From a virus: 49,330 nt of DNA. A model generated the notes under the pieces. The model did no database searches, was not told where the DNA came from, and saw only the letters and a program-made list of their open reading frames with translations. The stretch is taken from the UHGV virus genome UHGV-0139780, one strand, 5' to 3'. A program made the position numbers and the translations under genes. How positions within the stretch are numbered: position 1 is the stretch's first letter; each line of letters opens with the position of its first letter. Below, in pieces: positions 1 to 49,122 of this stretch.

Positions 1-312
1 CCGGAAAAACCCGCGTGATAAAAAGGCCCGCACACAAGGTGCGGGCAAATGATCGCGTAATATACTCAACAATTAGCTCTGTAATTATACAGATTCTTAA
101 TAGCGACAGAACTATTTAATGCGCTCGGATTCGTTTTTAGTTGAAGTAATATTAAACACCCTGAAATATCGTATAAGTTACTCGAAGGGGTTCATTAGAA
201 TCCATTCAATGCTTTCTCGGCAGTGCTTTGAAACGATAATGGATAAGTAAGCACATACCTACAATGAAAGTGTGATATGTGATATAAATCCGCCATCCCG
301 ATTTGACTTTTC

Positions 313-648
313 ATGGAGGAAAACATGTCGAACGAGATGGCGGGCGTTACAACAGATCAAGTTGAGCGTATTGCCGCAATCGTTGCTCGGGAGGTTGTTG
401 GCAAATTGGGTAAAGAGCTACGTGAAGAAATTGGCCAGGAGGTCAACGATCAGCTGAAAACCTACTTTGGTGATATGACCCCGGCGCAACATAGTATTCA
501 ACACTCCAACCTGGACAAACTCCTTAACCGGTTAGATTCCATCTCAAGTGGGTTCTTTGGCGGCATTGTTTCTAAAATAACGTCGTTCATTATTACCGCA
601 CTGCTTTTGGGGTTAGCCGCGTATGGCGTAAAAAACGGGCTGCAATAA
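313..648 (+). CDS. small membrane protein with single C-terminal TM helix; putative holin
   Basis: 111 aa, hydrophobic C-terminal segment (ITSFIITALLLGLAAYGV); sits immediately upstream of the endolysin-like gene; GGAGGA before an alternative ATG at 325. Confidence 0.35.
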   Translation: MEENMSNEMAGVTTDQVERIAAIVAREVVGKLGKELREEIGQEVNDQLKTYFGDMTPAQHSIQHSNLDKLLNRLDSISSGFFGGIVSKITSFIITALLLGLAAYGVKNGLQ

Positions 649-661
649 CAGGAGATCAAGG

Positions 662-1354
662 ATGAAAACTCCGAGAGGCATTCGTAATAATAACCCCGGT
701 AATCTTGATAAAGGATCACCGTGGCAAGGTCTGGTTGCGAATCCAGACGAACCGCGCTTTTGCACGTTTAAAGACCCTGTTTGGGGGATTCGTGCGCTGG
801 CGGTGACTCTAATTACCTACCACGATAAACGTCGCGCAAAAGACGGCTCAAGTATCGATACCATTCGTGAAGTTATTGAACGCTGGGCACCGCCGAATGA
901 AAACAATACTGACGCCTACATTAATGAGGTGTCTAAAGCCGTTGGTGTAACCGCAGACATGATCATCGATCTGCATGATTACGACATCCTTCGACCTTTG
1001 GTTGAGGCAATCATTCGCCACGAGAATGGTCGAGGTCCACTCAAAACGCTGAACACCTGGTATGCGGCAGAAGTTATTGAGGAAGGTCTGCGTCGAGCTG
1101 GCGTCGTTAAGCCGGTGAAAACCGTGAAGGCTGTTCCTGTAACTAAAGAAACCGCAGGCGCAACTGTTACAGCAGGTATTGGTCTGGCGCAGCTGGCCGA
1201 TGTTATGCCGCAGGTTTCCGCTGCTATGGATAAGGCACAAGGTCATATCTCTAGCGGGGATACAGTACGCATCATCTTCGGTATTGCCACTATTGTTGTG
1301 GCAGGATTCATTGCCTGGTCGCAGGTAAGAAAACATCAGAAAGGGATGGTCTAA
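662..1354 (+). CDS. putative peptidoglycan hydrolase (endolysin-like) with C-terminal transmembrane anchor
   Basis: 230 aa; N-terminal GIRNNNPGNL motif; C-terminal hydrophobic helix (IIFGIATIVVAGFIAW); position between holin-like and spanin-like genes. Confidence 0.4.
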   Translation: MKTPRGIRNNNPGNLDKGSPWQGLVANPDEPRFCTFKDPVWGIRALAVTLITYHDKRRAKDGSSIDTIREVIERWAPPNENNTDAYINEVSKAVGVTADMIIDLHDYDILRPLVEAIIRHENGRGPLKTLNTWYAAEVIEEGLRRAGVVKPVKTVKAVPVTKETAGATVTAGIGLAQLADVMPQVSAAMDKAQGHISSGDTVRIIFGIATIVVAGFIAWSQVRKHQKGMV

Positions 1355-1355
1355 T

Positions 1356-1607
1356 ATGCTAGGCAGCCTGATGACAAAGCTAAAAGTTGCTTTGATTACG
1401 CTGGCTGCCGTTCTTTTCGTTCTGGTCGGCGCTTACACGATGGGCGGAAATGCGGCGCGACGAGCAATGGAAGAGAAGGCAAAACAGGAAGACAGAAAAC
1501 GACTTCAAAACACAGTGGAAGTGGTAAATGAGACGAGCAATAAAATACGTCAGAAAGATGCTTCTGCCATTCATCGTGAGTTGTATGATAAGTGGGTGCG
1601 TCATTAA
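1356..1607 (+). CDS. i-spanin-like protein (N-terminal TM, charged coiled-coil-like remainder)
   Basis: 83 aa with N-terminal TM (LKVALITLAAVLFVLVGAYT); directly follows the endolysin-like gene; overlaps a lipoprotein ORF in another frame. Confidence 0.45.
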   Translation: MLGSLMTKLKVALITLAAVLFVLVGAYTMGGNAARRAMEEKAKQEDRKRLQNTVEVVNETSNKIRQKDASAIHRELYDKWVRH

Positions 1608-1743
1608 ACCACAAACCGCCAGCGTATTGTTCTGCGATGGAGCTGAGCCTATCTATATCAGCAATAATGATGTAATGACCGAAGAAACCGAACGCCAAAT
1701 CCTTTTTCACAATACGATGGGAGAGAGAGTTTGCGGTTGGTGA
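1528..1743 (+). CDS. o-spanin-like outer-membrane lipoprotein (overlapped architecture)
   Basis: 71 aa with lipobox-like ISGC after a hydrophobic leader; starts inside the i-spanin-like ORF in a different frame. Confidence 0.45.
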   Translation: MRRAIKYVRKMLLPFIVSCMISGCVIKPQTASVLFCDGAEPIYISNNDVMTEETERQILFHNTMGERVCGW

Positions 1744-1774
1744 TACGAAGTTCCCCTCATTTGAGGGGAGTACA

Positions 1775-2296
1775 TTATTCTTCGAACAATTTTTCGATAG
1801 ATTTTGTTGGATAGAACAAAGATCGCTCGTTGTTTCCAATCAACTGGATAAAGCCCAGGCTTTTATAAAACGCCTTAGCCTTATCATTCAACGCCTCAAC
1901 GAAGAGTCCATGAATACCAACAGCAAGAGAGGCGTTATACACAACACGCATAGCGTGTGTTACAAGCATTGAGCCAAACCCTTGACTTTGAAGAGGTTTG
2001 TCCAAAGCCAGTCTGCCCAAAGTAACACTTGGCACATTCCGATAAGGCACCTTCTTTTGCTGGCTTCTTGAAGGTAAGGACTCCTTTTCAAAGCAGCTGC
2101 CTGACAAAGTGTAATACCCTAACACTTTGGGTCTGTCTTCTTTAGTGCAAAGCACATAAGCGCGAAGAATTTTTCCCTCATGCTGTCTTTTTAAGTGGTT
2201 GATTAAAAAGGAGTTTAGAGATTCTTCACCGCAATCAAAGCCATTCAAATCATAATCTTTCTCTCCAGAGAAAATTTCTATCTTTATATTATCCAC
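1775..2296 (-). CDS. GNAT-family acetyltransferase toxin (TacT/AtaT-like)
   Basis: 173 aa with GNAT-like core (QSQGFGSMLVTHAM...AKAFYKSLGF); GTG start 7 nt after the stop of an upstream DUF1778-like ORF. Confidence 0.7.
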   Translation of the reverse strand: MDNIKIEIFSGEKDYDLNGFDCGEESLNSFLINHLKRQHEGKILRAYVLCTKEDRPKVLGYYTLSGSCFEKESLPSRSQQKKVPYRNVPSVTLGRLALDKPLQSQGFGSMLVTHAMRVVYNASLAVGIHGLFVEALNDKAKAFYKSLGFIQLIGNNERSLFYPTKSIEKLFEE

Positions 2297-2303
2297 GAGT
2301 AAA

Positions 2304-2573
2304 CTATTCCATGCTTTTCAGACGATCAGCAGCTCGTTTCAGCTTGTCGTTCGGTGCCGGAGGATTGCTTATAGCGTCCATAACCAGATTCCAGGATTCC
2401 TCATTCAGAACCAGTCTACGGTGTTGCTCTATAACTTTCACGGCACGTTCAGATGCACTGCTAACCATAAACTGAGTAATGCTCTGGTTAGACATTGCGG
2501 CAGCTTCCTCGATGATGCTTTTATCGTCATCGGTTAATCTCAAATCGATGCGCTGCTTTTTTAGTGCTGACAT
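2304..2573 (-). CDS. DUF1778-type ribbon-helix-helix antitoxin (TacA-like)
   Basis: about 89 aa from the internal ATG at 2573, which has AGGAGG 5 nt upstream; the track ORF extends to 2612; coupled to the GNAT ORF. Confidence 0.65.
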   Translation of the reverse strand: MSALKKQRIDLRLTDDDKSIIEEAAAMSNQSITQFMVSSASERAVKVIEQHRRLVLNEESWNLVMDAISNPPAPNDKLKRAADRLKSME

Positions 2574-2891
2574 GTATTCCTCCTGATGGCCGTGATGTAG
2601 GAAGGCCATCAATCTCCTCTGTTCAAACTGAGGTTTCGACTCAAAAATTACTTTAAAAGGCTATAGCCCATTACGTGTGCATTATCAAATTGTGTACGGC
2701 ATATCACCGTACTTGTAATATAGAGGTCATTGTTACTTTTTTCAACAGACAAATACAAGCTGTGATTGCCAATTGTTAATCACAACCTACCATTTAACCT
2801 TTACACCGCAGCCGTAGGCATTTAGGCTATATCACATATAAGAAAACAAGTTGTTTCAGACGATAATTATATACGCAAAGGGAACTCTCCA

Positions 2892-3560
2892 ATGACCAAG
2901 ATCTTTGTGGTTGGCGGCACAAAGGGCGGGCCTGGCAAATCCACCGTTGCCCAGCAAATTGCCGTTTGCCTGAAAGTCAAAAAGAAGAAGAAGGTTTATA
3001 TCACTGATATAGATATTCAGCGCACGACAACAAGCTGGTGTGAAGACCGTCGACAGAACGAAGACCTTGAGCTGATTCCTTTTGCATACGTTCAGGATGA
3101 CATCATTAAGCACCTAAAATCACTTCAGGGTAGAGCTGAGTTTGTAGTGGTAGATGCTGGTGGCTTTGACTCCGAAATTCAGCGACAAGCGATGCTGATG
3201 GCTGACGTTATCATTATCCCGCTTCGTCCTAAGCGTCGTGATTTGAAATCTCTGCGTGACATCGATCCTATTATCGACAATGTTCGTAATGTAAACGATA
3301 AAGTGAAGGTCCGCGCGGTCATGAACCAGTGCCCGGCTTTGCCATCACAAGTGTCTCGCATTCTGGCGGCTAAAGAGATTGTCGAGACGTTTGGCATCGA
3401 GTCTGCGCCTGTCAATCTATATAACCGCAACGTCTACGATGATGCGGAAGAGTCTGGTCGTTCTATCTTTGAAATGACCGGTAGCGAGCGCGACAAAAAG
3501 GCGGAAGCCGAGTTTGAAGAATTTGTAGATTATCTGTTGAGTCTGGAGGAAGAAGAATAA
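2892..3560 (+). CDS. parA: ParA-family partition ATPase
   Basis: Deviant Walker A GGTKGGPGKST near the N-terminus; 222 aa; followed by a small basic ORF. Confidence 0.8.
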   Translation: MTKIFVVGGTKGGPGKSTVAQQIAVCLKVKKKKKVYITDIDIQRTTTSWCEDRRQNEDLELIPFAYVQDDIIKHLKSLQGRAEFVVVDAGGFDSEIQRQAMLMADVIIIPLRPKRRDLKSLRDIDPIIDNVRNVNDKVKVRAVMNQCPALPSQVSRILAAKEIVETFGIESAPVNLYNRNVYDDAEESGRSIFEMTGSERDKKAEAEFEEFVDYLLSLEEEE

Positions 3561-3919
3561 TGTCCATGAAAATGGGTGACCTAGCAAAGCGCAAAGAGCC
3601 TGATGCACCGGCTAAGAACACAACTCCTTTGCGCCAACCAGTCAGACCACAGGGACGCCCGACTCGTGGCAAAGAGAAAATTAAAAGCCGCACAATGTCA
3701 CTGGAAGACGAATACTTCGAACTGCTGGAGATGATGAAGTTCATCCCTCGTTTCGAGAAGTTCACCCGTTCTGACGTGATTCGAGCAGCTATTTTCCATC
3801 TGGCAGAGAAGTCACCGCAGGAAATCGAGGACATCGTGAAACTTAACGAGGCGATCACAGCTGCCGACGTTACTATGCGTACCGATGAAATCAAGCGAGA
3901 ACTCATGAAAAAAGGCTGA
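3560..3919 (+). CDS. small centromere-binding partner protein (ParG/RHH-like)
   Basis: 119 aa, basic N-terminal tail, start overlaps the parA stop; 3' end resembles an RHH fold. Confidence 0.5.
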   Translation: MSMKMGDLAKRKEPDAPAKNTTPLRQPVRPQGRPTRGKEKIKSRTMSLEDEYFELLEMMKFIPRFEKFTRSDVIRAAIFHLAEKSPQEIEDIVKLNEAITAADVTMRTDEIKRELMKKG

Positions 3920-3947
3920 CAACTTCCGGTCTGGCAGCTTCAATCAG

Positions 3948-4009
3948 AACCTGTTTCTGTATATAAATAATAAGTAACTTATTAAATATATATATACGGA
4001 AGCAGGTCT
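3948..4009 (+). terminator. large hairpin (16-bp stem, AT-rich loop) plus T-run; copy A of a recurring element
   Basis: cctgtttctgtatata ... tatatacggaagcagg followed by tctttt; a near-identical element lies at 47461-47520. Confidence 0.5.
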
Positions 4010-4114
4010 TTTAAAAGACACCCACCAGAACAACTCCCTTCCGTTTTCACTTCCAAAAACTGACACCAGTCGCTATCATCTGCTCATTGTGATAAGTAAG
4101 TAACTACCTACCAG

Positions 4115-4864
4115 GTGAGCCACATGAGCCAAATCTTTTTCGACACAATCGACAACGACCAGTACGACTTCATGACAGAGTGGAATACCGCTGTTATGGA
4201 CAAGTGGGTTGCTGAAAACATTGGTTTGTCGCGCTGCAAAGACGAGGCTGAACTCTTCTATACGAAGTGGTTTGATTACCGCGACATGCATCCTCTTATG
4301 GCTACCTGTCTGTTTACGGAGGCATACAAACGTCAGTACTCAAATATCATGCTGACGCACGGTCGCGAACACTTTGAAACAGCTCCGTTTACCACCGGGT
4401 TAAAACGCCTGCCTTATCAGGAGTTGTCGACTGCCAATAAAACGTCGCTATGGAAAGCACGCCAGTTTGCTGACCGCTATTGCTGCTCATACGACTACTT
4501 TATCTCCACCGTGCTTTCCGCAGCTGCACGACGTCTGTGGGACAAGCTGCCTCGCCCACAACATTTGTGGCAGCCAGAACTGATTGAGATATTTGAAGAG
4601 AAATTAGCCAGGCGCGCAACAACCCGTCTGGATGACTCTCTGGTTAGCTTTAAGCATATGGGAGACATGCAGTTCAACCCGATCCAGGAAAGCTATTTTG
4701 AGTGGATTCTGGAGCGTTTACGCACCATCCCCCGCAGCAAGCGCATACGCGCAATTTTCTCCGCTATCTGGCTAATGGAAATCGTTCCAGAGCGCCTTAT
4801 TTCCGCCCACTTTCCAGAAGAACTGGAAGAAGCACGGCGGTTTATTGATCCCCTATCTAATTAA
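4115..4864 (+). CDS. hypothetical protein
   Basis: 249-aa ORF immediately upstream of the helicase gene; no motif recognised. Confidence 0.4.
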   Translation: MSHMSQIFFDTIDNDQYDFMTEWNTAVMDKWVAENIGLSRCKDEAELFYTKWFDYRDMHPLMATCLFTEAYKRQYSNIMLTHGREHFETAPFTTGLKRLPYQELSTANKTSLWKARQFADRYCCSYDYFISTVLSAAARRLWDKLPRPQHLWQPELIEIFEEKLARRATTRLDDSLVSFKHMGDMQFNPIQESYFEWILERLRTIPRSKRIRAIFSAIWLMEIVPERLISAHFPEELEEARRFIDPLSN

Positions 4865-4907
4865 CTAATACTAGAAAACAATTTGTTTAAAAAACAAAGG
4901 AAAGCAC

Positions 4908-6248
4908 ATGACCGAACTTTGCCATACAGGACGCGGGCTGTCCGAAGAGTTTGATGAAGATTTCCAGAACAGATTGACGGCATATTTTTGTCGTGATCAC
5001 GAGTTTCTTACTCGTGCGGGAGATCTGGTTGTGCCTAGCCAATTTGCCAATGCGGCCAATGCCATATTGGTTAATATGGTTTCGGGCTATTACCGTATGT
5101 ACAAGAGCGCGCCCTCTTCATCTGCGATTCTGGATCTGCTTAAGCGTGCGAAACGCGATAAGACTATCCGTGAGGAACTATTCGCGGATGTTGTTGCTGC
5201 GTTTAAGCGCATCCTTGCAGAAAAATTGTCCGATACCTCGTACATGGTTGACCAGGTATCAACCTTCGCAAAAAGCGTAGCGTTTGATGATGCTCTGATT
5301 AAGGCTGCTGAACTTAAAGAGAAAGGCGACTTTCAGGGGGCGATGGCAATCATGGCCAAGGTTCAGCAGATTGGATCGAACGAAGCGGCCGGAATCTATG
5401 ACTACTACACTTCCGCAAGTGAGCGATTGAAAGCGCGTGAATATGAGGCTTCAGAGGAGTATGTGCCAAACAGCATTACAACTGGACTCCCTCTGCTCGA
5501 TAGGTTGCTGTACCAAAAAGGCTGGGCGAAGCGTGAAATGGTGCTCTTCATGGGGTTCGCTAAATCCGGTAAATCGACCGCAATGGGTGAGTTTTCGGTA
5601 AACGCAACGCTTGCTGGCTACAATGTTCTGTATCTCTCGCTGGAGGTTCACACCACCATTTTATCCGACCGTTTTGATGCAAGATTGTCGGAGACGGAAA
5701 TGTCCAGACTGGTGGAACGGCGCGATGAAGTTCATCGTAAGTTGGCAGAGTTGGGAGCCACTAAGGGGATTGGTAGTTTGTGGGTTGTTGAGCGTCCGTC
5801 AGGAAGTATGTCACCGGCAGATCTGGACCGTATGCTTAACAGTATGAAAGCCAATGGCATGGTGCCTGACATGGTTGTTGTCGACTACGCAGATTTGATG
5901 CGTGCCAGTTATGACCTTCGTGATGATCGCGCCAATATTCGTAGTATCTACACAGATTTACGTGCTCTTTATGACAAACATAACGTTGCTGGAATCACGG
6001 CATCGCAGACAAACCGTGAAGGTGGCGCGTCAGAAGTTGCCACAATGATGCACGCTGCCGACAACATCGAAAAAGTACGTATTGCTGACCTGGTAATAAC
6101 GATCAACAAAACCGAAGAAGAAGAAGCGAAAGGAGAGGCTCGTCTCTACTTTGCTGGTTCACGTAACCAGCAAGGAGGGATCAGCATTCGTGTTAAACAA
6201 AACCTCGAACAAATGCGCTTCATTGAGCGGATCTTAGACGTTACCTAA
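4908..6248 (+). CDS. replicative DNA helicase (DnaB/gp4-like RecA-fold)
   Basis: Walker A GFAKSGKST, Walker B-like VVVDYADLM; conserved ACAAAGGAAAGCACATG start context. Confidence 0.75.
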   Translation: MTELCHTGRGLSEEFDEDFQNRLTAYFCRDHEFLTRAGDLVVPSQFANAANAILVNMVSGYYRMYKSAPSSSAILDLLKRAKRDKTIREELFADVVAAFKRILAEKLSDTSYMVDQVSTFAKSVAFDDALIKAAELKEKGDFQGAMAIMAKVQQIGSNEAAGIYDYYTSASERLKAREYEASEEYVPNSITTGLPLLDRLLYQKGWAKREMVLFMGFAKSGKSTAMGEFSVNATLAGYNVLYLSLEVHTTILSDRFDARLSETEMSRLVERRDEVHRKLAELGATKGIGSLWVVERPSGSMSPADLDRMLNSMKANGMVPDMVVVDYADLMRASYDLRDDRANIRSIYTDLRALYDKHNVAGITASQTNREGGASEVATMMHAADNIEKVRIADLVITINKTEEEEAKGEARLYFAGSRNQQGGISIRVKQNLEQMRFIERILDVT

Positions 6249-6329
6249 AAAATAAGCGTGGAGAACACCTCCACGCTTGATTCATTGGTGAAACAACTTT
6301 TCTTTTGCCAAACCACAAAAGAAAAACAC

Positions 6330-7511
6330 ATGAACCTTTATGTTATATCAACATTTAGGTTGGTCACAATATTGCCTGTTAAAAGTGGAATTATCGTGAG
6401 CGAGCTGAAAGAGCTAATTACCGAATTAGATTTTGAACAATGGTTGGACACTGAAGGTATCGTTTATCGACGTGGAGGTGTGAGTACTCGCGGTCGTGAA
6501 GTGAATATCAAGGAGTGTCCGGTATGCGGCAGCTCCAACTGGAAGGTATATTTCAATCTGACCAGCGGCGTCGGTAAATGCTTCGCTGGTGATCATCCCG
6601 AAGAGATTCAGTTCAATAAGCTGGTCTTCCTCAAGCACTACAGCGGTAAATCACGACGACAGTTCGAGGAATATGTGCAGAACGCTCTTCTTTCCCAGGG
6701 GTGGGCACCAAAGAAAGAAGAGATAGTGCTTGCAAGCACAGTCGAGTTAGAGGGACCACTTGCACTCCCTCGTCATTACGAACTTCCTATAGATGGCCGT
6801 CTTCCAGACTATCTGGTTGAACGAAACATATCGCCTGAAATGGCAAAGTATTTTGACCTACGATACTGCGTCGAAGGTAAGCACGCCTATGTAGATCCGT
6901 ATACAGATCAGGTTAAAGGACAGATATTCGATATGCGAATACTGATACCGGTTTACGATCTGGATGGGGTAATGAAGACATTTCAGGGGCGAGACATTAC
7001 CGGTACAGCTGAACGTCGCTACCTCTTTCCTATGCAGCTTCCAGCTTCAGGTAAGTTCCTCTACAACGGCCATAATGCAGTCGGCAAACAAACTGTTGTT
7101 GTCTGTGAGGGGGCGTTCGATGTTATGGGAGTCAAACGAGCTATTTTTGACGAAGAAACATTACGTGATTACGTGGAACCGATAGGAACGTTCGGGATGC
7201 ATCTATCTGGTAACACTACTCAGGATGCAGAAGATCAGTTAGGCGCGTTCCTGACGCTCAAGGCGCGTGGATTACGTAATGTGATCATGATGTGGGATAG
7301 TGAAAAGCAAGCTATACGAAACACTATGGCCGCAGCCAGGCGACTGACCAGTATCGGTCTTAATGTCAAAGTTGCGTGTTTGGGTGAGGAAGGACTCGAC
7401 CCGGGCGGTGCAACGCCAGAACAAATTATCAAAGCCTATTATCGGGCAAAACCGTATACCAAACAGTTGGAGTTGCAAAGCAAGGTTTTGGGCATTAAGG
7501 CTCTCTCATAA
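6330..7511 (+). CDS. DNA primase (zinc-finger plus TOPRIM)
   Basis: CPVCGSS...C zinc finger and VVVCEGAFDVMG TOPRIM motif; start placed at the ATG preceded by AAAAGAAAAACACATG; track start 6258 overlaps a hairpin. Confidence 0.7.
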   Translation: MNLYVISTFRLVTILPVKSGIIVSELKELITELDFEQWLDTEGIVYRRGGVSTRGREVNIKECPVCGSSNWKVYFNLTSGVGKCFAGDHPEEIQFNKLVFLKHYSGKSRRQFEEYVQNALLSQGWAPKKEEIVLASTVELEGPLALPRHYELPIDGRLPDYLVERNISPEMAKYFDLRYCVEGKHAYVDPYTDQVKGQIFDMRILIPVYDLDGVMKTFQGRDITGTAERRYLFPMQLPASGKFLYNGHNAVGKQTVVVCEGAFDVMGVKRAIFDEETLRDYVEPIGTFGMHLSGNTTQDAEDQLGAFLTLKARGLRNVIMMWDSEKQAIRNTMAAARRLTSIGLNVKVACLGEEGLDPGGATPEQIIKAYYRAKPYTKQLELQSKVLGIKALS

Positions 7512-7587
7512 AATCGCACCTTTAAAATAAGTAGATAGTCACTTATCTTTCTGTAAGAATAGTTTCATCTGTTAGCTAGGAGTTGGT

Positions 7588-8370
7588 ATGAAAGACGAAA
7601 TTCAGAAATTAGCTTGCGACATCATTGATAAAACTGGTTTAGAAATCAGCGAGAGTAACCGGCTAGACATTATTGAAAAAGCCGTCAATACAGCAATGGA
7701 TCATATTGCCACTCGTTTAGTCGATATCCCGCTACCAGGACTACCTTATCTGAAAGTTGAGTTACGCGTATGGGGCGAATCTTCTGATGCACGGCGTTCT
7801 GCATTGGTTGTTTTTATTAGCAAAGAAAACATACAAGCTCTAAAAGTGCAGGTTGGGGCATGGTTTGATGGTAGGGTTATCTACACTGATACTCTCATTT
7901 GTCCTTCAGGTGATGAGCATATTGAAGCCACTATTCGAGAATCAATTCGGGCTATGCGCAACTTGTCTTTGCTGAAAGACAAGCCTAACTATGAAAATTA
8001 CTTGCTATCAACAAAATCTGAACCAGCATTGTCGCTGAAAGCCGATTTTGTGACCCCGGCTAACTTGCTAGAAGTTTTGATCAATAAAGGGGCGAAGAAT
8101 GCCGTAAATGTAATCAGAGAGAGTGAATATGCATCTCTTTGCGACATGTGCAAAAGCCAGTTGGATCTGGTGCATATCGTTATTGATGCTGGGAAGGCAT
8201 GTGATGGCGTAATGGCGGAATTTGCTGGGAAGATGGTCAGGATTGCTAACGAATTACCGATGATAGAGCAAGAGGCTAAATCATACGCCACCAATCATGT
8301 CACAGAGCTTCTTGTCCCCTATCGCTTAGAAAGCAATCAGCGCAAGATGATTAGCTGGGGAAGTTGGTAA
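7588..8370 (+). CDS. hypothetical protein
   Basis: 260-aa ORF with good coding continuity; no motif recognised. Confidence 0.4.
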   Translation: MKDEIQKLACDIIDKTGLEISESNRLDIIEKAVNTAMDHIATRLVDIPLPGLPYLKVELRVWGESSDARRSALVVFISKENIQALKVQVGAWFDGRVIYTDTLICPSGDEHIEATIRESIRAMRNLSLLKDKPNYENYLLSTKSEPALSLKADFVTPANLLEVLINKGAKNAVNVIRESEYASLCDMCKSQLDLVHIVIDAGKACDGVMAEFAGKMVRIANELPMIEQEAKSYATNHVTELLVPYRLESNQRKMISWGSW

Positions 8371-8427
8371 TCTCTCCGAGCGTCGTTTCTTTTACGCAAA
8401 CAATGATAGGTAAGTACAAGGTTATTT

Positions 8428-8910
8428 ATGGCGATAGTTGTGAAAGCTGATTTGTCAAAAATCCCCTCTATTTCAGGAAATAATGGTTATTCACTTCGTT
8501 GTGAGGAAGTAAAGATAAACGGTGAGTCGGCATATTGCAGTTACTCCGTTTGCCAGCATACCATTCTTGCCTTCAAAGAAAACCGTCTTCCTCGAACTTC
8601 ATTCCAGTCGTGCGCAACCGCTATCAAAGCAGGCAAATGCAAGGCGTTAAAAATGATGGTTGGAGAGATTCGTAAAGGAGAATCTCTGTATTTCGAAGAT
8701 ATGACCGCGCTCATTAAGGAGGTTGAAGAACGGAATAAACAAGCCAGAACTATAAAACGAAAACGTGACAGTGTAACGATTAATAGCATGGTTAAGAAGA
8801 GCACCACATCACAAACAGCGATCACTGACGTGTATGCGGCGTTGCTTGAAGAAACAACAAAAGAAACACATGAGCAAATCGATCAACATATGGAGGCAAA
8901 ACAACAATGA
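8428..8910 (+). CDS. hypothetical protein (Cys-containing, basic C-terminus)
   Basis: 160-aa ORF; no motif recognised. Confidence 0.4.
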   Translation: MAIVVKADLSKIPSISGNNGYSLRCEEVKINGESAYCSYSVCQHTILAFKENRLPRTSFQSCATAIKAGKCKALKMMVGEIRKGESLYFEDMTALIKEVEERNKQARTIKRKRDSVTINSMVKKSTTSQTAITDVYAALLEETTKETHEQIDQHMEAKQQ

Positions 8911-9376
8911 AAAAGTTGATCGCACTTAAGCATAAGCTGGACGAAATGAAAGCTATGGGAACCAATGCAAAAAAAGAGGCATTGGCCAACATGGATGACT
9001 TCGAGCAAAGCATGGTTTCATTGATGCTCAACCCTTTCATTCGTTTTGGGGTAAAGAAATACAAAGTGACCGGAGTTCCCTGAGTACTGGAAGCCTAAAA
9101 CGCGAGCTAAGTTAGAGCGTTTAGGGTTGGTTGCAAACGTTTCTGAAACGAAGTGTTCGGCCAACTACCAGTTAACTGATAAAGGGAAAGTATTGCTACA
9201 GCAATTAGTAGAATCAGGAGTGTTAAAATGATTCCATACATCTCATTAGCTTTTATGGCGGGCTTCCTTATCGGCTTCGGCATCTGTCGTGACTTAATTA
9301 AGCAGGAACTTAAAACCAAAACACTGTGCATCGGAAAGCGTGTGTATCGAGTAGTTCATGAAACAAAGGTTAGAAA

Positions 9377-9667
9377 ATGAGCAATTTAACTTCTTGGGAA
9401 TGGTGGTTGGTCACCTATTTCTTAGCGGCCGGAGTCGCATTCGCCTTTTACGTAGGTCAGTTAGTCGTAAAACTGCTGCTGATGAAATTTGCCAGTCATA
9501 AACGTATCGATGATGGTCTGTGGCGTCTTGGCACCCTGGTGGAAACTCGCTACGGGCAACTTAAGGAGAACGAAACCATTACTATCCAAGCGAAACGATT
9601 CACTGCCACCATCACAAGAACACCTGATCGTAGAGTGGCCTTGATCAAAAAAGTCACAACCGAATAA
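9377..9667 (+). CDS. hypothetical small membrane protein
   Basis: 96 aa with N-terminal hydrophobic helix (WWLVTYFLAAGVAFAFYVGQLVV). Confidence 0.35.
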   Translation: MSNLTSWEWWLVTYFLAAGVAFAFYVGQLVVKLLLMKFASHKRIDDGLWRLGTLVETRYGQLKENETITIQAKRFTATITRTPDRRVALIKKVTTE

Positions 9668-9872
9668 AAACACGACGATAAGTATTTACTTACCTATCCT
9701 TTGTGTATAAGATGACTTTGTTTTCGTTGAGACGCGACTGTTTGAACTTAAATACAAGTGCAAACGAAGAAGTCTATCTGGCAGTAGCCTAATAAGCCAA
9801 ACACCAGCGAGGTCAGTTTCCAGCCTCGTTACCGAAATGGAACACACTGAGCGAGTGTGATTGCAGAACGCA

Positions 9873-9978
9873 GGAGGGAACATGAGTGTTCCCTCCGATG
9901 AAGTAACAGGATGGGCGGTTGGTATTTCAACTCCATATGACTCCCGGATTCTTAGCCTCTGACCGCCCATCCTGTTAC
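9873..9978. repeat. two adjacent perfect hairpins (10-bp stem/4-nt loop; 17-bp stem/41-nt loop) in an ORF-free region
   Basis: ggagggaaca tgag tgttccctcc at 9873-9896; gtaacaggatgggcggt at 9904-9920 pairs with accgcccatcctgttac at 9962-9978. Confidence 0.6.
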
Positions 9979-10053
9979 GTCATTTTGTTCAATTATGTCG
10001 TTTATACTGGGTTAAAAAGCGGCGACGTAGCCCGGCTGGTATGGTTAGCCAGC

Positions 10054-10176
10054 ACACAACGTTGAGGCCATTACATTTTTATCAATTCTAAGGTTCTGTT
10101 CACAGAGATACCGGCGAGCGTTGATATGTAACATGTTGGGCAAACATTCAATCGGAGTAGTGGCCTCAACGTTGTG
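10054..10176. repeat. 16-bp perfect inverted repeat with about 90-nt loop upstream of the tRNA cluster
   Basis: cacaacgttgaggcca (10054-10069) and tggcctcaacgttgtg (10161-10176). Confidence 0.6.
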
Positions 10177-10440
10177 AAGACAGGATAGTTGTGTAGGTTT
10201 AACCACTGTTGCCATTGGTGCCTGTTTTCACAACAAATGATTCCATACATCACATTGTATAAATTATAAAGTAGGTGCTGTCCTCAGAAACATCATCTAC
10301 TTAAAGATTTAGCCTTCTATTGAGCGAAGTCGAAAGCGTCTGGCACTAACGTAAAGTGCAAGTAGCGGTGCGTTTCCTGGCAGAAACTAACACCGCCGCG
10401 ATTGGCACTGTTGAGTAATAAATACTGTCAGTGCTGAATT

Positions 10441-10515
10441 GATGGTGTAGCTCAGCGGCAGAGCAGTTGGCTGTTAACCAACTGGTCGGTGGTTCGAATC
10501 CACCCACCATCGCCA
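10441..10515 (+). tRNA. tRNA-Asn (anticodon GTT)
   Basis: Cloverleaf by eye: acceptor gatggtg/caccatc, anticodon loop ctGTTaa, T-loop ggttcgaatcc, encoded CCA. Confidence 0.8.
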
Positions 10516-10520
10516 ATTTA

Positions 10521-10608
10521 GGGGAGTTAGTCCGTAGAGGTAGCGGGGTAGACTGTAAATCTACTGTCATTGCGACTCGGATGGTTCGACTCCATCACTC
10601 CCCACCAA
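10521..10608 (+). tRNA. tRNA-Tyr (anticodon GTA), long variable arm
   Basis: Acceptor ggggagt/actcccc, anticodon stem-loop tagac-tGTAaat-ctact, long variable arm, T-loop ggttcgactcc, CCA. Confidence 0.8.
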
Positions 10609-10611
10609 ATT

Positions 10612-10687
10612 GCCGGTTTAGCTCAGTTGGTAGAGCAGTCGCTTTGTAAGCGAATGGCCAGCGGTTCAAGTCCGTTAACCGGCACCA
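10612..10687 (+). tRNA. tRNA-Thr (anticodon TGT)
   Basis: Acceptor gccggtt/aaccggc, D-arm gctcagttggtagagc, anticodon loop ttTGTaa, T-loop ttcaagt, CCA. Confidence 0.65.
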
Positions 10688-10695
10688 CAACAATT

Positions 10696-10782
10696 GGAGA
10701 GTAGGGAGCATGGTGCTCAAACGGTCTTGAAAACCGTCCCATTGCGCAAGCGATGATGGTTCGATTCCATTACTCTCCGCCA
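10696..10782 (+). tRNA. tRNA-Ser (anticodon TGA), long variable arm
   Basis: Acceptor ggagagt/actctcc, anticodon stem-loop acggt-ctTGAaa-accgt, long variable arm, T-loop ggttcgattcc, CCA. Confidence 0.75.
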
Positions 10783-10784
10783 GC

Positions 10785-10862
10785 CACAGCGTTGAGCGGT
10801 TTGGCCTTTTAATCACCCAGATTAAGACTCCGCTAACATAAACCAGACCGCTCAACGCTGTG
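10785..10862. repeat. 16-bp perfect inverted repeat with 46-nt loop just after the last tRNA
   Basis: cacagcgttgagcggt (10785-10800) and accgctcaacgctgtg (10847-10862); arm sequence resembles the 10054/10161 repeat. Confidence 0.6.
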
Positions 10863-10936
10863 ATAGACAATTACTGCAGACGTTCTTACCATAGCTTACT
10901 AACATCCCAGCAACTCTTCTGTCAGCGCAAAATTCA

Positions 10937-10958
10937 AAGGGGCTTCGGCCCCTTTTTT
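10937..10958 (+). terminator. rho-independent terminator
   Basis: aaggggc ttcg gcccctt followed by tttttt. Confidence 0.7.
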
Positions 10959-10998
10959 GTAACTGAAATAGTCAAATCGAACTTTGTAAGGAGAAGTA

Positions 10999-11244
10999 AT
11001 GACGATCACTATCTACGGACGAGATAACTGCTCTTACTGCAAACGTGCGGTCGAGCTGGCAAAGCAACTAAAGGGGCATGGCTGCGGTGATTATGAGTAC
11101 ATCGACATCACCACAGCCGGTATCGACAAGGAAAAACTAAGTGAAATTGTTGGTAAACCGGTAGAGACTATCCCACAGGTACTGATCGACGGCCAGCCGA
11201 TTGGCGGATACACAGAACTGGCTGCATACGTCAGCACCCTCTGA
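10999..11244 (+). CDS. glutaredoxin/NrdH-like redoxin
   Basis: 81 aa with CSYC active-site motif in a thioredoxin-fold context (ITIYGRDNCSYCKRA). Confidence 0.7.
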   Translation: MTITIYGRDNCSYCKRAVELAKQLKGHGCGDYEYIDITTAGIDKEKLSEIVGKPVETIPQVLIDGQPIGGYTELAAYVSTL

Positions 11245-11248
11245 TTTT

Positions 11249-11272
11249 AACGGCTCACAGGAGCCGTTTTTA
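11249..11272 (+). terminator. rho-independent terminator
   Basis: aacggctc acag gagccgtt followed by tttta. Confidence 0.65.
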
Positions 11273-11323
11273 TTCCCACCAAACTCACTCCCGTTTCCCT
11301 TAAAATTCAAAAAACAACGTCAA

Positions 11324-11356
11324 AATGATTCCATACCTACTATGTATGGAATCATT
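11324..11356. promoter_or_regulatory. lox/dif-like candidate recombination site: 13-bp perfect inverted arms around a 7-bp spacer
   Basis: aatgattccatac ctactat gtatggaatcatt, about 100 bp upstream of the tyrosine recombinase gene. Confidence 0.4.
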
Positions 11357-11454
11357 ACTGAAAATGAGTTACTTTTACTCTTGATCCTATAAGAATCTAT
11401 GCCTAATATACTGTTTACTTATACAGTGCAACGGCGTAACTCGGTGATTGTCAT

Positions 11455-12558
11455 ATGAAAAATAGCTTTGACAGAGCACGCGCTGCGGAGAACACCTCAA
11501 AAGAGGCGATTGAGTATCTCGAAAGAGCATCTCAAATGCAGGCCGTTATGATCTCCCAGGTCAGCAATGACATGAGATTCTCGGACGCATTCATGTTATT
11601 CACTCGCTTATCTCTGCTGATAACAAGACGTCGGCCAGAGATCGCTGTTCATTGTATTTTGATACATGTTTTGCCGCACATTGCCGACGTAAAAGTAAGT
11701 GATATTAATAGGTTCATGGTGAACCAACTGGTCAACCCACTAATACTGGATGGCAAAATTGTTATGGGCCGCCGCGTTTTCTCTCTGATGAAGCAGTTCC
11801 TCAGCTGGTGCGCCTTCCAGGGGATGATCGACGTGTCACCGTTAAACGATATGTCACTGAACAAAGTTGCCGGTGGCGCAAAGCCCACGCCTCGCGAGCG
11901 GAAGCTGACCGACGCAGAGGTATGGGTGTTCTGGAATATATGGGACTACTTCAATGTGTGCGCTGGTACAAAATGGGCGGCCAGGCTATGCCTTGTATCG
12001 GCAAGACGACCTGACGAAGTTCTGCGGGCTAAAAAAAGTGAGTTCAATCTTAAGCGTGGGGTTTGGAATCAAGGCAAGAGAAACAAGTCAGCACGTGAGC
12101 ATTCGCTGCCTTTAAGCACATTAATGCGCACATGCATTGAAGAATTGTTCGAATACGGCAAAGACAGCCAGTGGCTTGTGCCTTCGAATAAAAAAATCGG
12201 GAAAGACCTTCCTATGTCTAAAGTGGCAATAGCCCAGGCATTACGTCGTATTCTGGACCGACCAGAACTGATGGAGCTTGAGCCATTTACACCCCGAGAT
12301 TTGCGCCGTACTGCGCGTAGTTACTTCCCAGCATTAGGCATAAGCCAGGAGGTATCACGCAAAATCATGAACCACAGTCTTGAGGGGATAGATCGGGTCT
12401 ACGATCGACACGATTATATGGACGAGATGCGAGACGCCTTAGAAAGTTTCTCGACGTACATCGCATCAATCGTAGAGCAACCGGATTTAGACGAAATTGA
12501 CCACAAATTCAAGGGAGATCGTCTATCAACAGAGCTTATTCGTGTAAATTTTTCATAG
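11455..12558 (+). CDS. tyrosine site-specific recombinase (integrase/resolvase family)
   Basis: C-terminal catalytic-domain signature: ARLCLVSARRPDEV, TPRDLRRTARS, NHSLEGIDRVYDRHDY; N-terminal start uncertain. Confidence 0.6.
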   Translation: MKNSFDRARAAENTSKEAIEYLERASQMQAVMISQVSNDMRFSDAFMLFTRLSLLITRRRPEIAVHCILIHVLPHIADVKVSDINRFMVNQLVNPLILDGKIVMGRRVFSLMKQFLSWCAFQGMIDVSPLNDMSLNKVAGGAKPTPRERKLTDAEVWVFWNIWDYFNVCAGTKWAARLCLVSARRPDEVLRAKKSEFNLKRGVWNQGKRNKSAREHSLPLSTLMRTCIEELFEYGKDSQWLVPSNKKIGKDLPMSKVAIAQALRRILDRPELMELEPFTPRDLRRTARSYFPALGISQEVSRKIMNHSLEGIDRVYDRHDYMDEMRDALESFSTYIASIVEQPDLDEIDHKFKGDRLSTELIRVNFS

Positions 12559-29579: not shown

Positions 29580-29627
29580 ATGCAAACTGACTGCGGCTCG
29601 TTCCGCAGTCATATTTCATTGTCGTCA

Positions 29628-30159
29628 CCGCTGACAGCATACACAATCAATTACCGCTGATAGCATATCGAGAGTTTATCTCACCGCTCACAGCATACTT
29701 TACTCGATTTTTTACCGCTGACAGCATACTTAAGACATTGCATGAATAATGTGTACCGGTATGGGTATAACCAGAACAAAATTACCGCTGGCAGCATACG
29801 AAGGTCTGACATATACCATTAATTACCGCTGATAGCATATCCAAACAAAAATTCCTCAATAAAACACCGCTGACAGCATACGTTCTATCAGGGAGCAGCA
29901 GGCAATAAATGCCTTTCACTACAAGCAATCAGCGCAATGGCAATAGAATGTTAGTGAGCGCAAACCTATATGGAATGCACTCTTCGAGGTTAGTAACCAC
30001 TGGGTAGGTATGACAGAGCATTGAGTGGTGATAGATGTTTTACCGCTCACAGCATACGTTTATCTCACTATACCGCTAGTAGCATATCTCTAACCGTTCA
30101 CAGCATACTTTTCAGAAAAATAGCCGCTGATAGCATACATTTCACCGCTGACAGCATAT
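29628..30159 (+). repeat. iteron array (12 direct repeats, consensus CCGCTGACAGCATAC) downstream of repA; incA-like
   Basis: Copies start at 29628, 29654, 29684, 29715, 29785, 29826, 29867, 30043, 30073, 30094, 30124, 30145; same orientation; irregular spacing. Confidence 0.75.
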
Positions 30160-31253
30160 CAAAGCAGTTTGAGACTATTGGAAAGGATCTCAATCATCTT
30201 GATATTTTCAGGCGTCAAATTCTGCGAAAGTTCGGTTATCTTGTTGATAATGTTCTGTTTGGCATCAATTTCCCCAGCTTTCTCATCTGGTTTTTTGGGT
30301 TCGATGTCTTCAGGTTTTGGCGGTGCGACTTTGAGTTTTGGATTGCGGCTGTGAATCTGGATATAGATCGACCGCCCTCGCTTAATCTCGCTGTATTCGA
30401 GATAGCCCAAATCTTGAAGAACTTTTAAGCCGTTACGTATAGTCTGATTCTGCGAGCTGACATTCCTGCTACTCAAATTGAGTCGCGCACGCAATCGAGC
30501 AAGCGATACCGGCGCAGGCTTGGTTGGAAGACTTTCGATGAAGGTGTACAGAGCCTGTGCTGTTTCTTTGCGTGGTAGCTTATTGATAACCTTTAACTGC
30601 AAAAGAACCTTATGGTCAAAGCGATATAGTTCGGCCAGCTTCGGTTCTGCATAGAATACCACCGTATCTTTCTGCTCGTTGTAGTCCACGCTATTGATGA
30701 GGTGCACCATCAGAAGCGAGATCTTGTTAGAACCGTCGACATTCTTTTCTTCATACGTTCTCTGGAAAGACAGAGTGGTACGCATAATCTTCAAAAGACT
30801 GTTTGTAAGCCGGTCGCGGAGTGTTTTGCGGATCTGTGACGATGGATAGCCACAAAACTTCGCAAATTTCGTGATGCTTAACTCGACACGACCGTTAGGT
30901 TCGCCGTATTCTGCCAGCGAACGCACGACGCCCACCCACGTTTTGAAATCATGATCCATGTCGAGACGAGGACCGGTTATCTTGATATCGGAATAGCCTT
31001 CAGAACGGGCTACTTCGAGCTGAACAAGCTCCTTTGAAGCATCGATCTCATTTGGCTTGTTACGCTTGCTGTATTTTGTCCCCTTGAGCGTGGGCACGAA
31101 CAACCCCAGCCGCATCAACGCAATTGGTTGGACTGTATTGTTGCTATTAGGGACAAGTTCCCCTGTGTACAATTCAAGGGAACCTTCTTCAAAGTTGTCG
31201 AGATTATCTTCTACTTCTTTGTTATTTTTACCTTTTTTATTTTTTGTGGACAT
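30159..31253 (-). CDS. repA: iteron-binding replication initiator (RepA-like)
   Basis: Large basic ORF flanked on both sides by iterons; start set to the internal ATG at 31253 (MSTKNKK...) because the track extension overlaps the upstream iterons. Confidence 0.6.
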   Translation of the reverse strand: MSTKNKKGKNNKEVEDNLDNFEEGSLELYTGELVPNSNNTVQPIALMRLGLFVPTLKGTKYSKRNKPNEIDASKELVQLEVARSEGYSDIKITGPRLDMDHDFKTWVGVVRSLAEYGEPNGRVELSITKFAKFCGYPSSQIRKTLRDRLTNSLLKIMRTTLSFQRTYEEKNVDGSNKISLLMVHLINSVDYNEQKDTVVFYAEPKLAELYRFDHKVLLQLKVINKLPRKETAQALYTFIESLPTKPAPVSLARLRARLNLSSRNVSSQNQTIRNGLKVLQDLGYLEYSEIKRGRSIYIQIHSRNPKLKVAPPKPEDIEPKKPDEKAGEIDAKQNIINKITELSQNLTPENIKMIEILSNSLKLL

Positions 31254-31274
31254 GTGGACACCTTTGTCATTCAA

Positions 31275-31375
31275 CCGCTGACAGCATACTTGATTTGCCG
31301 CTGGCAGCATACCAAAAACAGTTGGCAGCATACGGCGAACCGTTGACAGACTATCAATTACCGCTGGCAGCATAC
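31275..31375 (+). repeat. iteron cluster upstream of repA (3 full and 2 partial copies); incC/origin-like
   Basis: ccgctgacagcatac at 31275, ccgctggcagcatac at 31298 and 31361; partial copies at 31322 and 31339. Confidence 0.7.
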
Positions 31376-39511: not shown

Positions 39512-40654
39512 ATGTCATATTCAACGTTCCGTTTGGGTGCTAATGATGCAACCAAAGAGCCTATGTTCCTCGGACAATCTGTCAACGTGGCACGTTACGA
39601 TCAGCAAAAATACCGTGATTTTGAAAAGTTGATTGAACGTCAATTGTCTTTCTTCTGGCGGCCGGAAGAAGTTGATATTTCGAGCGATCGCATCGACTTC
39701 AATACGAAGCTGCGGGACCACGAACGCCACATTTTCCTGAGTAATCTCCGTTATCAAACGTTGCTCGATTCAGTTCAGGGACGTAGCCCAAATGCAACGC
39801 TGCTGCCGCTTATCTCTATTCCTGAACTGGAAACGTGGGTTGAAACGTGGTCTTTCTCTGAGACTATCCATAGCCGTAGCTACACCCATATTATTCGTGG
39901 CATGGTGGACGATCCGAGCATTGTTTTTGACGGTATTGTTACGGATGAAGAAATCATCAACCGAGCGATCAGTATCTCTGCTGAATATGACAGGCTTTAT
40001 GGGATGACATGCGAGCGCCAGTCGTTAGGTGAGAAGGAGTTTGAACGTCTGTACGTAAATGAATATGGCTGGGAGCCATACCCTTTGCACCGTCAGCTTT
40101 TCCGCACGTTGGTGTCCATTAATGCGCTTGAGGCGATCCGTTTCTATGTAAGTTTTGCATGTACGTTTGCCTTTGGCGAACGGAAGTTGCTTGAGGGTAA
40201 CACCAAAATTATGCGCTTTATTGCCCGTGATGAAGCTCTGCATTGCGAAGGAACTGAACGCATGATCCGCTTCATGCGTACCGGTCGCGAAGGTTTATTG
40301 TGGAAAGAGATTGCTGCTGATGAAGAAAACGTCATTTACGACACCATGAAATCAGTCGCCGAACAAGAAATGAACTGGGCAGACTATCTCTTCAAAGACG
40401 GTTCGATGATTGGTTTAAACGCGGATATTCTGAAGACCTATGTAAAATACCGCACCAATCTGGCTATGAATCGTCTTGGCCTGAAGGCTTTATTTCCAGA
40501 AGTTACCACTGATCCGCTGGTCTGGATGAACAAGTGGTTGTTAACCGACACACTGCAAATTGCACCACAAGAGGCAGAGCAAAGCACATATCTGGTAGGT
40601 CAGATCGATTCTACCGTGGATAAGGCTTCTCTAAGCCAGTTTGCAGACCTGTAA
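39512..40654 (+). CDS. nrdB: ribonucleotide reductase class Ia beta subunit
   Basis: N-terminus MSYSTF...[20 protein letters not shown] matches recalled E. coli NrdB; start at ATG 39512 after AAAAGGAAAAACACATG. Confidence 0.9.
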
Positions 40655-40731
40655 ACCGATACAAAGCATTATGTGGCCTGGCAACGCTGGGCCACAATGG
40701 ATCACAAGAATTAAGAAGGAACAAAACTAGC

Positions 40732-41601: not shown

Positions 41602-41772
41602 TTGTAGGTAGTTATCTATCTATGTATATTGTGTCTGCGCGTTAAATTTCTGAAACAACTATTCGTTTTTGGTGGCCTATGGTCACCATTTTTTTATCTG
41701 TCTGGTCTTGTTCTCTCAATAAATGTAAACTCACACAATAAATAAGTGATTACCTATCTTTGTGAGGTTTTT

Positions 41773-42876: not shown

Positions 42877-42877
42877 T

Positions 42878-44408: not shown

Positions 44409-44469
44409 AAATTGTTCGCCTCTTCGACATTGCGACAATAAAACTCTCAAAATGGGTTAAGGATAAAAA

Positions 44470-44889: not shown

Positions 44890-44895
44890 GGAGTT

Positions 44896-45453: not shown

Positions 45454-45456
45454 AAT

Positions 45457-45494
45457 AAACCCTACTTTAAATTAACTTTAAAGTAGGGTTTTTA
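45457..45494 (+). terminator. rho-independent terminator (15-bp stem)
   Basis: aaaccctactttaaa ttaac tttaaagtagggttt followed by tta. Confidence 0.6.
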
Positions 45495-45659
45495 TTAAAA
45501 ATATCTCACAAAAAGATAAATGTATTCAACTACAGCGATACCAATAACAACTTTTATTAATAAGTTGCTAAATTGTTCTTTTTTTGATGATTCCATTTTC
45601 CTTGCCAAAAAAAACATGAACGTACAATATTATAAATAACCTTTATTGAAGGTTATTTT

Positions 45660-47437: not shown

Positions 47438-47460
47438 TTTGTTCTGGCGTCTGTAATTAG

Positions 47461-49100: not shown

Positions 49101-49122
49101 AGACCAAAGTATAATTTGGCTT

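Follow-up and report, generated by a model that had tools for sequence, protein, structure and literature searches.

The stretch of DNA analyzed here, referred to as the window, comprises 49,330 nucleotides of viral sequence (UHGV-0139780) and represents approximately half of an SSU5/pHCM2-like phage-plasmid of Escherichia coli, whose genome measures 105 kb. It shares 96-97% identity with phages Cyrano and PhiR41_1 and 74-82% with Salmonella phage SSU5. The + strand carries nearly every gene of the window, and the genome is transcribed almost wholly one way. The window contains two copies of a long hairpin, which we call c1 and c2. Of 5,426 complete E. coli genomes, 263 have plasmids that match the c1 region, and relatives are found in Salmonella, Klebsiella, Cronobacter, Kluyvera, and Providencia. 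Some phage-plasmids of this type carry resistance genes (PMC9600943).

Copy c1 starts 30 nt past the stop codon of a parA/parG-like operon, and c2 follows the gene for a Dam methyltransferase. The preliminary description had reported, behind parG and Dam, two hairpins with a common 16-bp stem sequence, an AT-rich loop, and a T-run. Our analysis confirmed these hairpins at 3950-4006 and 47461-47515, with 16-nt inverted arms, an AT-rich spacer of 23 to 25 nt, and a TTTT run, as well as the upstream genes, as Dam gave a PF05869 match and "parG" proved to be the 119-amino acid (aa) partner of a small ParA. The features of the two regions, all on the + strand, are as follows.

2892-3560, +: small ParA (Pfam MipZ/AAA_31/CbiA), in the upstream block ended by c1
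3560-3919, +: 119-aa ParG-like partner of ParA, last gene before c1; no Pfam match
3928-3934, +: c1 outer left box GGTCTGG, inverted partner of CCAGAAC at 4025-4031
3950-3965, +: c1 5' arm CCTGTTTCTGTATATA, 16 nt
3966-3990, +: c1 AT-only spacer, 25 nt, with inner mini-palindrome AATAAGT-A-ACTTATT
3991-4006, +: c1 3' arm TATATACGGAAGCAGG, 16 nt
4007-4012, +: c1 T-run TCTTTT right behind the stem, U-tract of a putative intrinsic terminator
4007-4106, +: C-rich, G-poor untranslated leader behind c1 (C 29, G 11 per 100 nt)
4025-4031, +: c1 outer right box CCAGAAC
4124-4864, +: 246-aa all-helical protein, first gene of the block after c1
4908-6248, +: DnaB-like helicase, downstream of the 246-aa gene and followed by a primase
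46844-47437, +: Dam methyltransferase, final gene ahead of c2 (PF05869, E = 2.7e-38)
47441-47447, +: c2 outer left box GTTCTGG
47461-47476, +: c2 5' arm CCTGCTTCTGTATATA, 16 nt
47477-47499, +: c2 AT-rich spacer, 23 nt
47500-47515, +: c2 3' arm AATATACGGAAACAGG, 16 nt
47516-47522, +: c2 T-run CTGTTTT
47516-47615, +: C-rich, G-poor leader behind c2 (C 27, G 13 per 100 nt)
47533-47541, +: c2 outer right box CTCCAGACC; a further CCCAGAC at 47575-47581
47623-47853, +: 76-aa gene, opening the block after c2

Folding of the two copies as + strand RNA gave -24.8 kcal/mol for c1 (z-score -6.7) and -22.7 kcal/mol for c2 (z-score -5.3). Both stems are imperfect: in c1, stem positions 5 and 9 are U.G pairs, and in c2, position 5 is a C.A mismatch and position 9 a U.G pair. 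The outer 8 bp of the stems read CCUGYUUC/GAARCAGG, and the result is a stable stem-loop with a G+C-rich base. When the window was searched for the arm motif at up to three mismatches, only the four known arm positions were detected; the mean in shuffled sequence was 0.49, and none of 100 shuffles reached four. The leaders behind the hairpins stand out by their composition, with C minus G amounting to +18 behind c1 (99.6th percentile among all 100-nt windows) and +14 behind c2 (98.3rd percentile of the window). The leader behind c1 may be rut-like.

The interval between the ParG-like gene and c1 (3919-3950) is a variable cargo slot. The slot is empty in the window, whereas Cyrano has a single + strand gene there, PhiR41_1 a single - strand gene, and SSU5 three genes. 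Both Cyrano and PhiR41_1 have a canonical hairpin of their own right after the ParG-like stop codon. Homology with relatives begins at or just 5' of the left edge of c1 (window 3930-3950), and upstream of this point the cargo genes differ.

Several other features were observed in the window. An operator-like 20-bp palindrome, ATARGTA-N6-TACYTAT, is present in at least 10 copies on both strands (at 242, 4091, 8403, 9677, 22256, 28832, 32343, 37025, 41736, 46812, and 47849); at up to three mismatches there are five matches against 0.00 expected. It usually lies just 5' of the first gene of an operon, as with the copy at 4091-4111, which stops 13 nt ahead of the ATG at 4124, and the copy at 46812, ahead of Dam. 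These sites are probably the early promoter/operator set of the prophage repressor. A half-site resembling this operator, ATAAGTAAC, is found in the spacers of c1 and of a third copy, c3, described below. In addition, a 13-bp palindrome, AAACAAnTTGTTT, with TTAAAC..AAGA in front of it, lies 10 to 35 nt ahead of many start codons, including those of parA and the DnaB-like helicase. It occurs at 2844, 4876, 13469, 28032, and 39469 (5 copies against 0.38 expected), is present in 20 copies in SSU5 (L003-L005) and twice ahead of terS in relatives, and looks like a phage-specific promoter or activator site. Matches to a sigma-70-like promoter are depleted in two parts of the window, 1-12000 (8 against 19.3 +/- 4.7 in shuffles) and 40000-49330 (8 against 16.6 +/- 4.1). 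At least 11 iterons with the core ACCGCTGACAGCATAC, at 29623-30138 and 31268-31375, flank a 404-aa gene on the - strand (30159-31373), which is read here as RepA and whose SSU5 counterpart is annotated as "replication helicase". The RepA gene and the iterons (29.6-31.4 kb) are the plasmid replicon of the prophage. Last, two further large inverted repeats at 9898-9983 and 10055-10176 lie just upstream of a tRNA cluster (10441-10684); one has 22-nt arms, 95% complementary and 42 nt apart, and the other 20-nt arms, 95% complementary and 82 nt apart.

A three-site family in SSU5-like genomes

Relatives of the phage-plasmid keep the element at the three junctions that separate their main gene blocks, in agreement with the earlier claim that the copies stand at the ends of such blocks. 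The c1 site is followed by a hypothetical gene and then the DnaB-like helicase, and the c2 site is flanked by Dam and the 76-aa gene. The c3 site, which falls outside the window, lies before terS and ends ~115 nt ahead of it. Structural, lysis, and partition genes lead up to c1, genes of DNA replication and nucleotide metabolism to c2, and small early and regulatory genes to c3, with a spacing of ~25 to 45 kb between the three sites. All three are present in SSU5, Cyrano, a Cronobacter plasmid, and a Providencia plasmid. In IMG/VR, a scan for the element pattern detected at least 120 loci, and all those listed fit the three syntenic classes, with 55 c1, 31 c2, and 34 c3 sites among the matches listed; a scan of genome contigs anchored on the helicase yielded 6 loci only. 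The preliminary description had proposed a search for further copies and would have counted a total of two copies, neither at a transcript 3' end, against a specific function. We found a third copy in relatives, outside the window, and hundreds of orthologous copies.

The element consists of two inverted arms of 14 to 16 bp around an AT-rich core, with the arm consensus CCTGYTTCYGTATA, and its 3' arm is the best-conserved piece of the family. In SSU5-type genomes, the repeat exceeds the hairpin, with a TCTGG box 10 to 25 nt upstream and an inverted CCAGA(C/A) box 11 to 26 nt downstream. Only the 5-bp core of these outer boxes is constant, and the box flanks are not complementary. The TCTGG core recurs at c1, c2, and c3 in most SSU5-type relatives, even with different upstream cargo; c1 of Cyrano is without it.

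The family also shows losses and exchanges. The c1 copy is absent in relatives L221 and L223, and in L194 and L195, two apparently complete 110-kb genomes, c3 and the preceding 88-aa gene are replaced by a minus-strand gene, with terS and terL kept. Within one lineage, c1 and c3 share spacer variants (AAATAAT against AAATACT). Gene conversion between copies happens and could account for some of the concerted change. For both SSU5 and Cyrano, the linear GenBank record is cut within the c3 loop, at points 1 nt apart; as draft contigs often break at the element repeats, these record ends may be assembly artifacts.

We compared the element with known types of sites. Mobile palindromic repeats (REP, ERIC, and MITE) were ruled out by the three fixed syntenic positions in all relatives, with no flanking duplication visible. 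A LexA box, suggested by CTGT...ACAG in the arms, was rejected on the basis of a spacing of ~30 nt rather than 8, of 3' arms that mostly read ACGG, and of Providencia-type arms without CTGT. A loxP-like or Xer-like site has the wrong spacing, and three directly usable sites would delete thirds of the genome. Inspection of arms and spacer by eye gave no convincing match to a sigma-54 or sigma-70 promoter, and scans returned weak minus-strand matches only. The whole window was searched against Rfam at the gathering threshold, and the c1 region with a cutoff of E <= 10; these searches returned only tRNAs and hairpin-shaped miRNA noise. In the literature on SSU5 termini, cos sites, palindromes, or hairpins, we found no earlier description of the element.

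The family extends to distant lineages. The Providencia plasmid carries the element at the same three sites, with protein identities of 83% for terL, 60% for DnaB, and 60% for Dam. The sequence GCCGTGCTCCCATA / TATGGGAGCACGGC is present in five of its six arms, and the 5' arm of c3 is a degenerate version (CCGCGCTCTCAATA); the spacers are ~130, 50, and 150 nt long, without a consistent T-run. In type B, the 3' arm is TATACAGAGCCAGG at c1 and c2, and in types C and D, the 3' arms are ATATAGGAGCCAGG and TATCCAGAGCA[A/C]GG, at c3, c1, and c2. Distant lineages mostly share their own arm variant across all sites of one genome; in one mosaic genome, c2 is of type D, and c1a and c3 are of type C. The 5' arm is often decayed in types B, C, and D, where a separate canonical GC-rich terminator lies beside the surviving arm. 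Thus, the arm is retained even where termination is supplied otherwise.

Arm sequence, base pairing, and termination

Because a pattern scan biases the arms, we collected loci anchored on neighboring genes instead. The SSU5-type element was present in 58 of 80 loci anchored on terL, 67 of 80 on DnaB, and 55 of 67 on Dam, which gave 59 unique elements and 43 distinct arm pairs. Among the 43 arm pairs, 96.0% of the cells pair, compared to 95.9 +/- 0.4% when the letters of the 3' arm are shuffled. The covariation score was 0.081 versus 0.082 in shuffles, although the SSU5-type sequences are phylogenetically non-independent and the absence of covariation is thus weaker evidence than these figures suggest. 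At stem position 9, the sole strongly polymorphic one, the 59 unique elements carry T.G 27, T.A 14, C.G 12, and C.A 6 times. These counts are the exact products of the single-arm frequencies, meaning that the arms vary independently. Moreover, G.A, A.A, and C.A mismatches are fixed across whole lineages, and spacers have been replaced wholesale between lineages while the arms remained unchanged.

At the level of sequence comparison, these data show that the arms are selected each for its own sequence, separately, and not for mutual pairing. The preliminary description had held that the stem is conserved in sequence and not in structure alone, and this view is supported by the lack of covariation, the uncompensated arm changes fixed in large lineages, and the lineage-specific arm variants common to the sites of one genome. 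Arms that are kept as sequence and not as base pairs suggest that a protein recognizes them, in addition to a probable role in termination. From the earlier suggestion of a function beyond termination, a protein-binding site fits the data; an RNA-processing site is not favored, as pairing is not conserved.

A small GC hairpin with a T-run, found ~20 to 55 nt 5' of terS in relatives L134-L198 (outside the window), provides an internal contrast to the large palindromes. This hairpin shows true compensatory changes, with the variants GAGCGC..GCGCTC, GAGCAC..GTGCTC, and CGGCGC..GCGCCG, and resembles a tR'-like terminator under antitermination control.

To score a T-run, we required at least four T in the first 8 nt after the stem. 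By this measure, T-runs are present in 33 of 35 distinct c1 and 20 of 22 distinct c2 elements, compared to 3 of 24 c3 elements, and they always lie on the coding-strand side. The spacers of the window copies, 25 and 23 nt, exceed the usual short terminator loop (about 3 to 10 nt), and a simple consensus terminator scan reported neither copy. The genes listed for the LF82 lysogen as having expression above background include CYRAN_29 and CYRAN_30, on the par side, and the genes after c1 are missing from the list (PMC9928086). This gene-level list is compatible with termination at c1. We conclude that termination is likely to be an additional role of both window copies, which are credible terminators; across the family as a whole, termination is not the common property.

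Possible roles of the element

As a tentative but plausible reading, we propose that c1 and c2 are boundary elements, whose arms are sites for a putative element-encoded DNA-binding protein and whose transcript, in this lineage, is also the intrinsic terminator of the upstream block. Each hairpin would represent one copy of a family-specific element placed at the three gene-block junctions. The putative protein would read the arms as double-stranded DNA and, when bound at the three borders, could block or regulate transcription passing from block to block. On the RNA side, the + strand transcript is predicted to form a 16-bp hairpin with UCUUUU or CUGUUUU directly behind it, which would end the par operon at c1 and the Dam operon at c2, and the C-rich, G-poor leader behind the hairpin could serve as a Rho-dependent backup. 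Several points count against this model. None of the candidate proteins gave an informative match to a family, sequence, or fold, and arm-like motifs were detected neither in the parA promoter region nor as conserved single sites elsewhere. The non-independence of the SSU5-type sequences, gene conversion between copies, and the mosaic genome also speak against it. The scarcity of U-tracts at c3 means that its terminator half is not applicable to every copy, and the long stems and large loops of the window copies are atypical for intrinsic terminators.

A broader claim, possible if on the unlikely side, is that the three elements are loading or binding sites of a dedicated protein that insulates three domains of the 105-kb genome, or a dispersed centromere, or multiple lytic origins, and that they constitute an undescribed cis-acting system linking plasmid maintenance to the separation of lysogenic and lytic transcription.

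The strongest alternative, which we consider rather unlikely, is that the copies are plain intrinsic terminators derived from one ancestor, kept alike by a stability constraint on the outer stem and by gene conversion between copies and arms, with no protein reader. The hairpins with their coding-strand T-run at c1 and c2, and their position at operon ends, are as expected for terminators, and c3 has a T-run in some other lineages (L193, L199, L203, L205, and L207). Whatever the arm type, complementarity is found over the outer 8 bp, and spacer variants common to c1 and c3 within a lineage are what conversion would give. However, in the Providencia-type copies, the homologous stretches of ~20 bp are too short for ordinary RecA-dependent conversion, and the independent variation of the arms, the lack of covariation, and the mismatches fixed in large lineages also count against this alternative. 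Nor do terminators explain why a U-tract is missing at c3 in 21 of 24 distinct SSU5-type elements, why the Providencia arms of 18 nt are near-identical (the 5' arm of c3 excepted) despite spacers of 50 to 150 nt and no consistent U-tract, or why single arms are kept where a separate canonical terminator stands alongside. At other places in its genome, such as 41670-41688, the phage has canonical terminators that are small and GC-rich.

An improbable reading is that the three sites form a dispersed centromere, in which either the ParG-like 119-aa protein or one of the two ParB_N-domain proteins encoded before c3 binds the arms. As in N15, the sites would function mainly in segregation and to a lesser degree in gene regulation. 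The repeated palindromic sites, three per genome, reside on a par replicon, and the par pair is present in every lineage having the element. No centromere-typical repeat array was found upstream of parA, and N15 provides a precedent with its four separate palindromic SopB sites, IR1-4 (PMC7205306). The c1 copy adjoins the par operon in the window and in types C and D, where it lies ~50 nt past the stop codon of the operon. In most relatives, however, cargo genes and a separate terminator intervene between parG and c1, as seen in Cyrano, PhiR41_1, and SSU5. The break of homology at the left edge of c1, with cargo upstream, thus suggests that c1 moves together with the replication block rather than with par. 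Moreover, no arm-like motif was detected in the parA promoter region (window 2600-2900), where a type Ib adaptor normally binds too, nor as a conserved single site elsewhere, and the polarity of the T-run is left unexplained by a centromere.

The properties of the ParG-like protein itself also bear on the centromere reading. It is 98% identical to SSU5_034. The identity is 90-92% for close relatives, falls to 61-63% and 48-53% for lineages farther away, and reaches 33% for Providencia. Its putative DNA-reading strand (IKSRTMSxEDE) is invariant across arm types A, C, and D, which counts against the centromere reading. Known ribbon-helix-helix adaptors (PMC3130281) read arrays of 4-8 bp repeats and not arms of 14 to 16 bp. 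An AlphaFold model of the ParG-like protein, with a mean pLDDT of 63 that is too low for a fold search, places helices at residues 48-60 and 70-84; it is compatible with, rather than proof of, a ribbon-helix-helix fold.

Searches of Pfam, PHROGs, and PDB sequences with the ParG-like protein, the 246-aa and 76-aa proteins, the 88-aa protein before c3, and TerS gave no informative function, and fold searches of neighboring proteins gave no useful match. The SSU5 operon that ends at c3 (L005 1817-5237) encodes two ParB_N-domain proteins, an ABC-type ATPase, two unknown proteins, and the 88-aa protein, which is labeled "DNA-binding" in the Cyrano annotation. This operon is a candidate source of the arm-reading protein.

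Two further readings are very unlikely. In the first, the elements are lytic replication origins, where binding of an initiator to the inverted arms would lead to opening of the AT-rich core, in the manner of the palindromic herpes simplex virus origins. An AT-only core between arms, up to 150 bp in length, the position of c1 directly before the replication block (246-aa protein, DnaB-like helicase, and primase), and three sites ~25 to 45 kb apart would suit such origins, whereas the single-arm forms have no flanked core, the T-run polarity and the fixed operon-end positions are unexpected, and the plasmid replicon lies elsewhere. In the second, equally doubtful reading, the element acts as RNA, either as an RNase III-type processing site or as the binding site of a phage antiterminator. 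Hairpin and outer boxes can form an irregular hairpin of ~100 nt (-31 to -50 kcal/mol, z -4.5 to -8.6), and inter-operon positions on a nearly unidirectional genome, with a lineage-specific sequence common to the copies, are in line with an RNA signal. Against this, C.A, A.A, and G.A mismatches are tolerated, the loops, which are the usual protein contacts in RNA hairpins, vary freely, the outer boxes keep their TCTGG/CCAGA core between non-complementary flanks, and no Rfam family matched. Least probable of all are packaging signals (cos or pac), with the copies other than c3 as secondary terminase sites. The position of c3 ~115 nt ahead of terS and the two GenBank records cut within its loop would suit such signals. 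Against them, the proximity to terS holds for c3 only, three copies per genome would yield subgenomic cuts, c3 is absent from L194 and L195, which keep terS and terL, and the record ends in the c3 loop may be artifactual, with no termini reported in the SSU5-related literature that we found.

SSU5/pHCM2-like phage-plasmids are common, and their regulatory layout is almost unstudied. The boundary-element reading would offer a handle on how the genes of the plasmid state stay apart from lytic genes on the same strand. A three-site boundary element predicts where transcription stops and where a regulator, partition, or replication protein binds, and it marks the edge of a variable cargo slot. If the element is only a terminator family, it still helps to annotate operon ends and explains the breaks in short-read assemblies of these plasmids.

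Comparison with known systems

Among sites that combine arms with an AT-rich center, P1 parS is a single site right after the par operon, in which arms of protein boxes of two types surround an AT-rich, bendable center with an IHF site and are read by a large ParB. The c1 copy is similar in its position behind the par operon and in its arms flanking an AT-rich center; unlike parS, its possible partner is small and ParG-like, and the best IHF-like match in the spacer is without the conserved C. The herpesvirus origins oriS/oriL, three per genome and intergenic, consist of inverted initiator sites around an AT-rich center. The element resembles them in number, position, and layout, but an origin does not agree with its single-arm variants and its U-tract polarity. 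Lambdoid nut sites and T7 RNase III sites are few per genome, lie at operon borders, have a lineage-specific sequence, and act as RNA with conserved loops or pairing. The element shares with them its low number, its position at operon borders, and a lineage-specific sequence common to the copies, but its loops vary and its pairing is not selected.

In comparison with intrinsic terminators, the window copies have a G+C-containing stem followed immediately by a U-tract on the coding strand at the 3' end of an operon. They differ in having a loop of 23 to 25 nt, with an inner hairpin in it, instead of the usual 3 to 10 nt, and in a stem kept as sequence. Furthermore, c3 and the distant lineages are without a U-tract or have 50 to 150 nt between the arms, and some sites consist of a single arm.

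Dispersed centromere or operator sites are also known from pSM19035 (omega sites) and from RK2 (the OB sites of KorB). In these systems, as in N15, one plasmid-encoded protein reads the sites for partition and for control of transcription. Their sites are compact palindromes of 13-16 bp or arrays of heptads, whereas here asymmetric arms of 14 to 16 bp enclose 23-150 bp of AT-rich DNA, and no copy of the element is present at the par promoter. What the element has in common with the IR1-4 sites of N15 SopB (PMC7205306) is a small number of palindromic, lineage-specific sites located near regions of replication and late-gene control.
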